Of a stretch of DNA of 64,000 nucleotides, positions 1 through 62,633 are shown piece by piece. Within the stretch, counting starts at the first letter, position 1. Every line of letters starts with the position of its first letter. The notes beneath the pieces were generated by a model, which saw nothing but the letters and a program-made list of their open reading frames with translations, did no database searches and had not been told where the DNA came from. Origin of the DNA: Microbotryum violaceum (Eukaryota); assembly GCA_001244265.2 (NCBI GenBank), contig CDLV01000005.1, positions 1,984,001-2,048,000 of the forward strand, written 5' to 3'. Position numbers and translations under genes: made by a program.

Positions 1-250
1 TCATCGACGACTTCGGAACAGACCGCTTGTATCGTGTGGTCGCTGAGCGTATTCTGGCCAGCCGTGCGGATGCCGGAATATCGCTTCCACTTGGATGTGA
101 CCATGTCGAAGAGGAACCTTGTACGCGCCACTGCAAGAATGTCGCCAAGTGTCAGCATATTCGATTATGCCATGCATCTCGCCGGGAACTAAGGATCTCA
201 CGCTTGGCGACTTTCTTGGCGCGTGCAAGGTTCCTCTTCGACATGGTCAC

Positions 251-849
251 TGTAAGGGTTTGATCCTTCAAATGTCGCGAGAGCTGCTACAATCGACTGT
301 TGACTTGTTCTGGTCGTTTCAGGTTGATCCAAATTGAAGTCCTCCCAAAAGGTCTAAAGGAAAGAAAGACTATCCAAAGGTACTGTGACAAATCTATTCA
401 AATGAGAGGAGAGCAGAGCAGAGCCTCATCAGCAACTTTACCACGCGCGCTTCAGAACAGTCTAGAGCATGCGCAGTTCAGAGCCGTTCTAGATCAATTC
501 AGGCATAAAGCGCGTAAAGCGCATTCAGCCCTGCACTGCTAGATTGCTCTAGATTCTGTCTGGAAATCCAGATATTCAGTGCGCTTCCAGAGCTTCCAGA
601 GCATTTCCAGAGCATTTCCAGTGCAATTCAGAGCATTTCCAGAGCATTTCCAGTGCCATTTCAGACCAATTATGACATATTCAGTAAGTGTTATGTGCAA
701 TGGTATGATCTCATTGCATTTACAGCCAAACCTTCGAGACTCTACGTTCTTCTAAGAGCACAAGTTAGGCATCAAACCCGAACAAAGCCGCTTCAGCGCA
801 CGTTGTCTCAGTTGTGGGCAAGGCCCGTGGGAGGGGCGCATCCCTCTCA
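251..849 (-). repeat. LTR (minus orientation) interrupted by a ~385-bp insertion
   Basis: Homologous to solo LTR 9156-9357 and to rc of 1557-1782. Adjacent inverted polypurine tract TCCTCCTTCCC at 850-860. Confidence 0.8.
416..800. repeat. Insertion inside the left LTR with degenerate tandem ~11-mer GCATTTCCAGA
   Basis: Absent from the other two LTR copies, which read ..AGCAAGTTGTCTCAG contiguously. About 7 GCATTTCCAGA-like units at ~580-665. Confidence 0.7.
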
Positions 850-1074
850 TCCTCCTTCCCAAGTCCAGAATGGACTTCATCGTCGGGGACCTTAGTACGG
901 TTCGAATCGGAACGTCTTCATGCGTTCGTTCTCAAGCTTCCTAACTTGTTGTTGGAGGTTTTCCCGGTCGAGAAGAGTGCCTCACCGACCGACACTCCTG
1001 TTGTGGCCGAGCATAGGTGCGAGCTGGAGCCCGGTCACCCCAAAGACCGCTACAAGCTCAACCCACCGAAGCCG

Positions 1075-1514
1075 CTCGCAATTCGTGGCATTCAAGAGAT
1101 GCTTGCTGAACCATTTGGCGGTATTGTCTACAAGGTCTACTTCAAAGGGCAGACCAGCAAGAAGAGTGACGGTCAGCCTCGACGCTGACCACCCGGATCT
1201 GGGCACTGTGGGATGCCTACTACGCTGGCCACAGCACTCCATTGAAATTCTGGATGACCCGGGAATACCAATGCAAGGGCGAAGGCCCGCTTTGGGAAAA
1301 ATCACGGAACCTGGACACGGAGCGACAGGCAAATGGCGCTATCAGCTTTCATACAATGCGACTCCACGAACGTGATCTCGCGGATCAGGAAGGAAAAGCT
1401 GGCGGAAGGGTCACTCACATAGCCAAAATGCGTGTCGACCGGGAAAACCTCCTGCAACAAGTCAGGAAGCTTGAGGACGAACGCATGAAGACGTTCCGAT
1501 TCAAACCGCACTAA
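1075..1514 (+). pseudogene. Degenerate 3' end of a retrotransposon ORF, possibly chromodomain-like (Ty3/gypsy)
   Basis: Broken frames (IRGIQEMLAEPFGGIVYKVYFKG; REYQCKGEGPLWEKSRNL) loosely resemble a chromodomain. The ORF stops at 1514, just before the PPT and LTR. Confidence 0.4.
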
Positions 1515-1545
1515 GGTCCACGACGATGAAGGCCATTCTGGACTT

Positions 1546-1556
1546 GGGAAGGAGGA
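1546..1556 (+). other. Polypurine tract (PPT)
   Basis: GGGAAGGAGGA immediately 5' of the TG that starts LTR 1557-1782. Mirrored at 850-860 on the minus strand. Confidence 0.75.
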
Positions 1557-1782
1557 TGTGAGGAGTGCGCCCCTCCCACGGGCCTTGCCCACAACTGAGA
1601 CAACTTGCTTTTCTCTCGTTTGAATAGATTTGTCACAGTACCTTTGGAGACTTTCTTCGAATAGTATTTCTTTCCTCTAGGCCTTTTGGAGGGGCTTCAA
1701 TTTGGATCAACATGAAACGACCAGAACACGTCAACAGTCGATTGTAGCAGTTCTCGCGACATTTGAGAGATCAACCCTTACA
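1557..1782 (+). repeat. 3' LTR (~226 bp, TGTGAGG...CCCTTACA)
   Basis: TG..CA termini with short terminal inverted repeat, preceded by a PPT, homologous to the solo LTR at 9156-9357. Confidence 0.85.
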
Positions 1783-4063
1783 GTCACATCCAAGATGAAG
1801 CGACATTCCGGCATCCGCACTGCAGGCCAGGACAACCTCAGCGACCACACGATGGAGGTGGCCTGTTCTGATGTCGTCGATGACCGCAAACCTCAGCTTT
1901 GCAAGCCGAGCAGCCGTGAGTGGCGCCCTCAGTCGACCACATACCGGACTTGGACTGACGAACGATCCCGCCGCCGGGAGCGAACACAGGACGCAGTCCA
2001 GGAGATGGGTTTTAATTCGGGAAAGGCGAGGAAGAAGAAGAAGAAGACCAAGACCACCAAAGATGAGAAGCAGATCGAGGATGGGAAACCCTAAGAAACG
2101 CGCTATCGAACAAGCTCTCTGGAGGATTCGACGTGTGCAAGGGAACTCGGGCGCGACTTGGGGTGGACCATCGGTGGGGCTTTCTCAAATTTATATAACG
2201 GGGTTTTTTAGACTTGTATTAACGTGTTTTTGGTGTTTGTAATGGGTGTTGCTTCGTGTGAAAAGTCTACAGGAGCAAGAAGAGAGCAATATGTACCTAC
2301 AGCACCTGGTCCAGCATTACTACAGCGTCCACCCTTGAATCTCGGCGGGCGTTTAGAAGCCGCAGCCGCAGGTAGTGATGAGTGATTTGAGAGGGGCCTT
2401 TGCAATAGCAGACTTGACGAAGGATCAGGTGTGTGTGGAGGGTTATGGTATAGCAAAGACCAAAGGTGATATAAGAAGATAAGGGATGAAGCATGACTAG
2501 GAGCTCCTAAGAGACCCGGAGTGAAAGTAAGGAGAGAGCGACCGCAACAACCGAGAGACTGAGGTTAGAGCAGAGCGCGGGAGAGGGCTAGAAACGAGAA
2601 ACGAGAACGAGATCGAGATCGAGACGCTGAGACTGGGGACTAGAGAACGATGCGGAAAGAGACGTGAAACACGCTGAAAATGAGACCCAGGTAGTATGCT
2701 GTATGATTCTAGATTACCTGGGAGCAAGAAGCAAACTCCTTCGAAGTGTCCTAGTCATTCGAACCGCTCCGCTCCCTTCATTCCCCTTCACCGCCTATCC
2801 GCTCATTTCAGACGCTCTTCCCGCTTTTCTTGCGTCCTGTCCGGTCTTCGGTCCGAGTCCCGCTATACTTTACCTATCATGCTTGTTGTTTCCCGAATCT
2901 CCCACGCGCCAAAGTAAAGGGCCCGTTCTTAATCGCCTCCTTTTCCTCCTGCAAGCCGCCTTTCTCCCGTCCGGCGCGGTCTTCGGTGTGCATTTCCGCC
3001 GCCTGCATTCTTGTTTATAGTTGAACTTTGAGAGATGGATTATAGAACGCACTCGGAAGCGCTTTATCGATGAGATATCTGCCAAAACCGCTGTCGTTGA
3101 CCTGATCGATCGTCGGAGGTGACTCGTCATCGAGGCGCCAAAGTCTGGAACTTACTTCCGCTACAACCCCTCCTGTCCTTGACAAATTTGAATGTCGATT
3201 TTTCAGGTGGCCCTAGTACCAGGTGGTGTAGGGTGAACCTGCTATAAACCTCCTGAAGTTGGAAAGTTTCGGCGGGCGGGGTCGGGCCGTCCCGCAAGAC
3301 GAGCACAGTTGACATTCGGGTACATCGCGAATTTGTCCGAAGCCCGACGTTTTATCGTGGGCAAGTGCATCCCGAAATCACTCACCATTTCATAAGAATT
3401 ACTACCCTCGGAACTTGGAAACAAAGCGGTGCAGGACCCGCTGGCCGAACGGCGGGAATCCCGAGGCGGTGGTCGCCGAACCGCGAGAAAGGGGCTGACA
3501 TGGGAATAGGCGGCTTCTCGCAGAAACAACGGCGATCGCGGAGACTGGTTACCGCCGAAAAGGGTTTGCCCGAACTGAAAATTTGTCGTGAGTTGAGGAG
3601 AACTAATGGAATACAAACACCGAACATGGCGGAGTCACCTGATTCGGCCCGTGAGAGGGGCCTGAGTCTAGGAATGTGGAGTATTCCAACTTTTAGGGCT
3701 CCTGTGGTTTAGTGCAAGAGCGAACCTGGACACCATTCGGGCCGGCTAAATCCTCAAATGACAAAGGTATTTCATGTTTGTCGAGCAAATTCATCAATGA
3801 TGCTTTTGCAAACGTATTCGCTCATGGTTCAGTTAGTAGTCGTCCTTGATTCCTGTTGGTCCGCATCAAGCTTCATCCAAGACATCCAAGACAAGAGCTA
3901 TTCCGCCCTGCGGCTTGAACAGATCCGAGGATCCCCTAGAGCTCGGCCGATCTCAGGAGAGCAAAAGATGGCCCGGCGAATTCGATGTATGATAAGCCAA
4001 GTGGTGTTTGCATTCTCCTGTGTCTGAGATGGCGCAAACAGATGGTATAAGGTATTTATCGGT

Positions 4064-9155: not shown

Positions 9156-9357
9156 TGTAAGGGTTTGATCCCTCAAAGGTCGCAAGAACTGCTACAATTG
9201 ACTGTTGACGTGTTCGGTTTGTTCCAGGTTGATCTTGTCTAAGTCGACTCAAGGAAAGAAAGACTATCCAAAGGTACTTGACAAATCTATTCAAACGAGA
9301 GGAGAGCAAGTTGTCTCAGTTGTGGGCAAGGCCCGTGGGAGGGGCGCATCCCTCACA
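9156..9357 (-). mobile_element. Solo LTR (202 bp) with 5-bp TSD GGAGC
   Basis: TGTAAGGG...CCCTCACA flanked by GGAGC at 9151-9155 and 9358-9362. Same family as the LTRs at 251-849 and 1557-1782. Confidence 0.9.
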
Positions 9358-61409: not shown

Positions 61410-62633
61410 GGTGGACGCTGCAGTAACGCTGGACCAGGTGCTGTAGGTACGTATAACTCTCTTCTTGCTCCCGTAGACTTATTACGCGCTTTGTGAAGCA
61501 ACACACTTGCAAACGCTAAGAACATAATTATACAAGTCTTAGAAGTCTAAGAAAATCCCGGGGTTATACAAGTCTGAGAAAACCCTTACACTGTGAGCCG
61601 TCCTCCGAATTGGACTCCATTTCCGGGACTGCGTCGTGATCGCTCCGTGGAACGTTCGTCAGTCCAAGTTCGGCATGTGGTCGACTGAGGGCGCCGCCAC
61701 TCACGGCTACTCGGCTTGCAAAGCTGAGCTTGTTGGCGGGATCATCGAGGACTCAGAACAGACCGCCTGCATCGTGTGGTCGCTGAGCCTGTTCTGGCCA
61801 CTGCAGCCGTGCGGATGTCGGAATGTCGCTTCATCCTGGATGTGACCATGTCGAAGAGGAACCTTGCACGCGCCAAGAAAGTCGCCAAGGGTGAGATCCT
61901 TAGTTCCCGGCGAGATGCATGGCATAATCGAATATGCTGACACTTGGCGACATTCTTGCAGTGGCGCGTACAAGGTTCCTCTTCGACATGGTCACATCCA
62001 AGTGGAAGCGATATTCCGGCATCCGCACGGCTGGCCAGAATACGCTCAGCGACCACACGATACAAGCGGTCTGTTCCGAAGTCGTCGATGATCCCGCCAA
62101 CAAGCTCAGCTTTGCAAGCCGAGTAGCCTTGAGTGGCGCCCTCAGTCGACCACATGCTGAACTTGGACTGGCGAACGATCCACGGAGAGAACACAGGACG
62201 CAGTCCAGGAGATGAGTTATAATTCGGGAAAGGCGAGGAAGAAGAAGAAGAAGAAGACGAAGACGAACAAAGAGTTGTGCAGTTCTGCCGGAGAGGAGAC
62301 GATGTCCGTGCGCGCTGTGACCACGAGCGAAAAGGGGACGGTGCGTCGAGCGGCCGCAAGTCCGACAACCGGGGAGATCATTAGATCGACGACAGTCCGC
62401 TACTTGCGATCTATGGAGATTGGTCTTGAGGTTTGGTGTGCAACCAAGTCTCGTGGCGTGACCGTCGTAGCGATCCTTGAGTAGCAGATCGAGGACGGCT
62501 CATGTAAGCAACGCGCTATCGAACAAGCTCAGTCTGGAGGATTCGACGTGCGCAAGGGGACGCGGGCGCGACTTGGGGTTGAAACGGAGTGGACCACCCA
62601 TCGGTGGGTTTTTTTCAAACTTGTATAACCCGG
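61410..62633. mobile_element. Foldback/palindromic repeat element, copy B (uninterrupted centre)
   Basis: Arms ~61600-61895 and ~61937-62230 are inverted repeats around a ~40-nt loop. Outer IR GGTTATACAAGT (61562) / ACTTGTATAACC (62619). Homologous to 1-2333 in opposite orientation. Confidence 0.8.

Follow-up and report, generated by a model that had tools for sequence, protein, structure and literature searches.

A retrotransposon relic with two outward-facing U5 ends inside one target duplication in Microbotryum violaceum

In a stretch of 64,000 nucleotides from the genome of Microbotryum violaceum (assembly GCA_001244265.2, contig CDLV01000005.1, positions 1,984,001 to 2,048,000; the whole stretch is called the window here and numbered from its first letter), positions 251-1782 hold two 3′ ends of a long terminal repeat (LTR) retrotransposon joined head to head, with the same LTR end, the U5 end, facing outward on both sides, inside a single 5-bp target site duplication. 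The structure is confirmed as genuine, and it is an old, dead, single-copy relic. Its probable origin is a faulty complementary DNA (cDNA) with two U5 ends, produced by a template switch in reverse transcription and inserted by an integrase. The interest lies in the recurrence of like-ended insertions across families, not in the copy at 251-1782 itself: three further insertions with two like ends were found in an unrelated LTR family of the same genome.

Anatomy, integration site and copy number

The architecture agrees with what an earlier note, made from the letters of the window, had described. Both termini carry the same LTR end in outward orientation (TGTAAGGG at 251 and CCCTTACA ending at 1782), each LTR has a polypurine tract on its inner side (850-860 on the minus strand and 1546-1556 on the plus strand), and the inverted homology extends inward to 971 and 1435, leaving a core of 463 nt between the arms; termini and tracts were read directly. 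Over the 174 nt of 798-971 and 1435-1608 the inverted arms are 93% identical, and their divergence, counted over 338 aligned positions, amounts to 7.7% (26 differences). There is a single new joint in the whole anatomy, at 971/972: positions 972-1782 (811 bp) are the natural 3′ end of one element, comprising pol tail, polypurine tract and LTR, and the left part repeats, in inverted orientation, the final 122 internal bases (with the tract) and the LTR.

On the left, the inverted LTR (251-849, minus strand) is made up of ~214 bp of LTR and an insert of another dispersed repeat (~417-800, ~385 bp, with borders uncertain by a few bases), which forms a gap in the arm alignment, has matches at other places in the genome (for example L002-L008 and L029) and arrived later than the element itself. 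Inward of it lie the left tract, identical to that preceding the 3′ LTR of a full-length element, L071, and the parent's final internal bases in inverted form (861-971, minus strand), a stretch that differs from its counterpart at 1435-1556 at 8 of 122 nt, tracts included. This arm ends, at the novel joint, in the self-complementary 4-mer TCGA (968-971), mirrored at 1435-1438. On the right, the parent's last internal bases (1435-1545) are followed, all on the plus strand, by the second tract and by a 226-bp LTR of the TG...CA type with its U5 end outward (1557-1782). The unique core between the arms (972-1434, plus strand), which would correspond to the parent's pol tail after the integrase, is open over 970-1188 in one frame and over 1170-1514 in another. 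The second of these stretches, on the plus strand, leaves the core, enters the right arm and ends at 1514, shortly before the tract; the matching frame in the left arm has 29 codons only, with a stop a few codons past the joint. Judged from its reading frames, the core is not a neutral spacer.

Unlike the direct LTRs of intact Ty3/gypsy elements and of non-autonomous forms such as terminal-repeat retrotransposons in miniature (TRIM) and large retrotransposon derivatives (LARD), those of 251-1782 are inverted. A primer-binding site is absent by anatomy, both LTRs having a tract on the inside and host DNA beyond U5, and because primer-binding site, gag and pol are all missing, the element cannot be copied again. 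Because the arms form an inverted repeat, 798-1608 folds into a hairpin of -489 kcal/mol (z -27.6), a value with no bearing on transcription.

The pentamer GTCAC is duplicated on the two flanks (246-250 and 1783-1787, plus strand, read directly), as previously noted; by chance, two 5-mers were identical at 236 of 200,000 random boundary pairs of the window. The claim of two U5-type ends within a true target duplication likewise stands, and insertion was most likely carried out by an LTR integrase. The host is a dispersed repeat, found as a head-to-head pair here and at 61530-62630, whose left part occupies 1-250 and reaches to about -603, and whose right part (1783-2333, plus strand) continues in register after the duplication. 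The second pair contains a paralogous empty site with a single GTCAC (61842-61846, minus strand), in agreement with the earlier note; the two flanks match it unequally. The left flank (-558 to 250) shares ~99% identity with 61842-62631 in reverse, right to the border of the insertion, and the right flank is 82-87% alike to other host-repeat arms. Further single GTCAC pentamers lie in host-repeat arms at 97-101 (minus strand) and 61991-61995, and in ten dispersed copies of the host repeat a motif search recovered the site as single in six (five GTCAC and one GTCGC), the remaining four yielding no site. These identities point to a left flank homogenised later, by a conversion or duplication event that went no further than the insertion. 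Since the homogenised tract ends at the insertion edge, the left GTCAC may have been refreshed by this process, with the register of the duplication kept. The ~800-bp inverted repeats concerned, 99% alike (-558 to 250, labelled L031, and 61842-62631), bracket a block of 61.6 kb that could flip by recombination between them; the orientation of this block in the assembly is unproven.

Across the genome searched (33 Mb in 20 contigs, the window lying on contig C3), the inner part 850-1556 is present at one place. Part of the stretch is contained in 20 of the 23 listed public sequencing runs (six studies), and four runs, one of them possibly the source of the assembly, were compared in detail (X3, X5, X12 and X15; four studies, four species labels, all contigs), runs with small shares of it being excluded. 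In both X15 and X3, one contig covers 817-1594 and with it both inner joints, with no differences; X12 also bridges both, with a 171-bp deletion in the core, six other letters and one gap, and a contig of X5 covers 830-1410, including the left inner joint only. The depth of the core equals that of the single-copy flank in all four runs. The left tip (250/251) is bridged in X3 and X12, with 48 and 41 letters on the left, respectively; X5 offers 30 letters only, below the bridging threshold, and X15 none among the pieces listed. The bin 1791-1942 has no cover in X3, a hole in the filtered contigs that was not used. Because independent contigs bridge the inner joints, the structure is not an assembly join. 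The earlier note had looked to several copies as the sign of a mobile unit; by that measure, the single place in the genome and the single-copy depth make 251-1782 a one-off.

Like-ended insertions and relatives elsewhere in the genome

Insertions with two like ends were found in a 509-bp miniature LTR family unrelated to the element, for which 39 regions, many of them fragments, were examined and 40 of 54 candidates scored. L128 (contig C3) is a 367-bp palindrome with U5 at both tips, arms that are 100% identical and a duplication of CTCCT; it consists of a miniature-family LTR in front of which the final 163 bases of that LTR stand in inverted orientation, with the inner joint exactly at the LTR start. 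L133:1095-1709 (C1:2132290-2132904), also U5-U5, measures 615 bp, has arms of 100% identity and a duplication of TGCGA, and represents a complete element of the miniature family to which a further U5 end has been added in inverted orientation; its joint is made of short templated fragments from the tract, the interior and U5. L129:1294-2009 (C7:288554-289269; 716 bp, duplication ACCTT, arms 100%) is of the U3-U3 type. The inner joints differ among the three, and those of L128 and L133 each occur once in the genome. Nine regions of the miniature family combine intact ends with an exact 5-bp duplication, and they divide into three normal insertions, three solo LTRs and the three like-ended ones, a like-ended share of 3/9, or 2/8 if L128 is left out. 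Like-ended insertion is thus an event class that recurs in this genome.

Some other features of the miniature family may be recorded here. Its LTR ends in AGT...AATT, not TG...CA, and its copies are near-identical, with 5-bp duplications (for example L131:1501-2009, C2:1548636-1549144); one member, L139, has a 13-bp duplication. L165:792-1066 folds back at the natural hairpin that L129 has near the LTR start, and is without a second end.

A search of the genome with the LTR of the element itself gave 36 matches, nearly all solo or partial LTRs. Inspection of 23 LTR regions besides 251-1782 revealed no like-ended copy among them; ten have both LTR ends, six with an exact 5-bp duplication, three agreeing at 3 of 5 bases and one showing no agreement. 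A solo LTR of the family within the window (9156-9357, minus strand) has its own 5-bp duplication, GGAGC. A tree was built from 15 LTR copies, without the fragmentary ones and without alignment columns in which no more than two rows were filled; in it the two LTRs of the element paired against the 13 others with support of 95.4/97, sharing a 2-3-base gap and neighbouring changes. As much of this signal comes from one cluster of neighbouring changes, the sister LTRs show, as far as their sequences go, one template or one subfamily, and no more. At another place (L037:3515-4579, contig C10), an inversion interrupts an LTR of the same family, and its breaks carry a perfect inverted duplication of 42 bp.

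The nearest complete relative in the genome is L071 (contig C14), in which zinc knuckle, protease, reverse transcriptase, RNase H, integrase and SH3 domains follow one another, several of the Pfam matches being below the curated cut-offs. Its tract and the beginning of its LTR are 77% alike to those of the element over 61 nt (E 7e-8), and its post-integrase tail matches 1170-1511 over 17 residues only, 11 of them identical (E 1e-6). The element has a TG...CA LTR after a polypurine tract and a 5-bp duplication, as do Ty3/gypsy derivatives, and retains no enzyme domain. Derivation from a Ty3/gypsy family would follow from such a kinship with L071, an indirect assignment, no full-length parent being left. 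A protein search with 973-1185 returned no significant match, nor was any of three candidates among longer proteins significant, and six-frame searches of the core found no Pfam family. The sole match of 1170-1511 among 1.84 billion representatives, a 1043-residue protein, shows seven weak stretches and no Pfam family, and was set aside; a chromodomain after the integrase was a likeness by eye only, Pfam searches of the core and of the L071 tail having yielded no chromo family. The copia elements L034 and L039-L042 (contigs C1 and C2; 3-4 kb after pol), which hold an LTR copy 72-75% alike inside their own long repeat, were rejected as parents, having no tract and no match to the core.

Origin of the structure

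In the replication of LTR retrotransposons, minus-strand synthesis begins at U5 and proceeds through U3 and the polypurine tract into the interior. In the origin that we consider likely, the minus strand of a now extinct Ty3/gypsy family would have copied U5, U3, the tract and 585 internal bases before switching onto a minus-strand template, either its own, by folding back, or one from the second packaged RNA, in which case TCGA or a similar short, self-complementary word would have brought the 3′ ends of the two minus strands together. After the switch, 122 bases, the tract and the LTR would have been copied back out, and the family's integrase would have joined both tips of the resulting linear DNA, each of them U5, to one target with a 5-bp duplication. 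The 7.7% divergence of the arms, the insert in the left LTR and the homogenisation of the left flank with 61842-62631 would all have come later. We infer the placement of the switch in reverse transcription; either minus strand could have served, TCGA may have helped the switch, and the family's own integrase is the probable agent. An origin by one switch is favoured because it needs only one new joint and fits both the sister LTRs and the recurrent cases.

Several observations weigh against this origin. No parent copy was found by DNA and protein searches of the genome; L128, L133 and L129 belong to another family than 251-1782; and the fold-backs of the sister gypsy family lack an exact duplication. 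One of these, L105:1008-2210, consists of head-to-head 3′ ends with the left LTR cut after ~20 bases and no duplication, and the other, L121:1156-1739, has U3 at both tips, a small palindromic insert inside and no exact duplication. Moreover, the left copy of the duplication sits at the end of the later homogenised tract, and no contig among the pieces listed for the four runs bridges the right tip, 1782/1783. Finally, a normal left junction and a reversed right junction would agree at 11 of 13 bases, or at 10 if the start of the right LTR itself is used, and because of this microhomology a switch after insertion could yield the same sequence. A third locus of the sister gypsy family, L125:2798-3298, has a fold-back or inverted duplication near the 3′ end or LTR.

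A rearrangement after insertion, the main rival but in our view rather unlikely, would begin with a normal full-length insertion, the 5′ part of which was then replaced by an inverted copy of the 3′ end in two repair or replication switches, one using the near-palindromic target and the terminal inverted repeat of the LTR at the left tip and the other a short word at the inner joint. Beyond the microhomology, it predicts sister LTRs, as observed, and the locus lies in a head-to-head repeat that has undergone rearrangement or conversion. It requires, however, two new joints instead of one, and no normal 5′ LTR at the site appears among the rows listed for the four runs, all of which may postdate the event. 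A repair switch at the tip also fails to explain L128, L133 and L129, because the microhomology there reaches only 4, 6 and 6 of 13 bases, respectively.

Two cDNAs could instead have been inserted, each by its U5 end, in one integrase complex, their free ends being trimmed and joined by the host. Two-donor concerted integration is known in vitro, and such an event would account for the one duplication and the two U5 tips and would allow arms, now 7.7% apart, that differed from the start; yet, of the 15 copies, none is closer to either arm than the other arm is, and the joints of L128 and L133 resemble polymerase switches, so that we regard this course as improbable. The suggestion of the earlier note, a non-autonomous element that has terminal inverted repeats derived from LTRs and is mobile as one piece, has in its favour the integrase-type ends at both tips inside an exact duplication. 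It fares worse still and appears very improbable, given the single genomic place of 850-1556, the single-copy depth in all four runs, the missing primer-binding site and the 7.7% divergence of the arms; moreover, X12 has the same locus with ~1% change, no two like-ended insertions of the miniature family share a joint, and we know of no excision by an LTR integrase. An assembly artefact, for which the near-identity of the left flank to a place 61.6 kb away and the right tip unbridged among the pieces listed might speak, can be practically dismissed, with inner joints bridged by contigs from four studies and four species labels (one possibly the assembly source), the left tip bridged in two of the four runs and arms that differ by 7.7%. 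Two independent opposite insertions at the same five bases were rejected, the LTRs being sisters, as was a simple folding back of the right flank with conversion afterwards, which needs a 149-bp patch ending exactly on the mirror pentamer.

Other repeats were observed in the window and the genome. At 32018-38686, three paralogous genes, 65-80% alike, stand in tandem ~2.8 kb apart. Just past the window (L033, equivalent to window positions 66207-71600), there is a 708-bp inverted repeat of 99% identity, together with 336-bp direct repeats 5 kb apart that have internal 62-bp repeats, resembling an LTR element with a fold-back. L072:5289-8459 (contig C2) contains a 558-bp inverted repeat, 99% alike and ~2 kb apart, which overlaps a copia reverse transcriptase frame and lies upstream of a truncated gypsy copy.

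Implications and comparison with known systems

The findings suggest that DNA bearing the same end twice is accepted by LTR integrases in living cells, and that a single step of faulty reverse transcription is enough to produce an element whose termini are inverted. A derivation of Ginger-type DNA transposons from Gypsy elements, as has been proposed, thereby becomes testable, and like-ended pieces are open to mis-annotation as miniature inverted-repeat transposable elements (MITEs). It is conceivable, though doubtful, that like-ended cDNAs, both U5-U5 and U3-U3, are a regular and so far undescribed product of LTR retrotransposition in this fungus. If so, they would supply the structural intermediate that is missing between LTR elements and Ginger-type elements, which have inverted ends, and their insertions would be ready-made hairpin-RNA loci directed against their own families; in the boldest form of this idea, some of them would have been excised and moved again by an integrase-like enzyme. 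We found no description of like-ended LTR insertions in one duplication in the open-access literature, most subscription papers lying outside this scope; the 'U5-U5' of PMC12789967 denotes RNA pairing, as used in the accessible text, and is not relevant.

To Ty3/gypsy elements (Metaviridae; L071) the relic is linked by its TG...CA LTR, the same tract and LTR start, the 5-bp duplication and the weak match to the post-integrase tail; it differs from them in its inverted LTRs, two tracts and U5 at both tips, and in having no primer-binding site, gag, reverse transcriptase or integrase. DIRS-1, to our knowledge, makes no target duplication. The relic shares with it the inverted terminal repeats on a retroelement, but those of DIRS-1 are non-identical and recur in an internal complementary region, and the element uses a tyrosine recombinase, according to the accessible part of PMC7192593. 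Self-comparison of 251-1782 shows two arms only, with no such internal region, and a six-frame Pfam search found no recombinase.

Penelope-like elements have inverted pseudo-LTRs, with inverted joints ascribed to self-priming, and thus likewise bear inverted terminal copies inside one target duplication (PMC3846280). They differ, in what the accessible text of that source describes, by a GIY-YIG endonuclease, target-primed insertion, duplications of 8-10 bp and the lack of a polypurine tract, and the inverted layout is regular in them and rare here (PMC3846280). A Pfam search found neither a Penelope reverse transcriptase nor a GIY-YIG domain in 251-1782, and its ends and tract are of the LTR type.

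The defective proviruses of human immunodeficiency virus 1 (HIV-1) demonstrate that faulty reverse transcripts get integrated: inversions were reported in 2 of 78 distinct proviruses (two classes, 1.3% each) and LTR asymmetry in 26 of 88, both being attributed to switches between the two packaged copies (PMC9278108). The accessible part of that source describes inversions and deleted LTRs, not two like ends in one duplication. Ginger1 and Ginger2-Tdd have Gypsy-like termini in the form of inverted repeats of 40-270 bp and a duplication of 4-5 bp, and 'reverse evolution' from a Gypsy element is one scenario for their origin (PMC2836005). These elements have a transposase or form families with shared ends, whereas 251-1782 encodes no transposase and is single-copy (PMC2836005 for Ginger, in its accessible part). 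Of the traits of MITEs and Ginger elements, the relic has terminal inverted repeats with a target duplication, but its interior does not recur in further copies at other targets. By the tests made, 251-1782 is a member neither of the defective proviruses nor of the Ginger elements and MITEs: it works like the former and looks like the latter.

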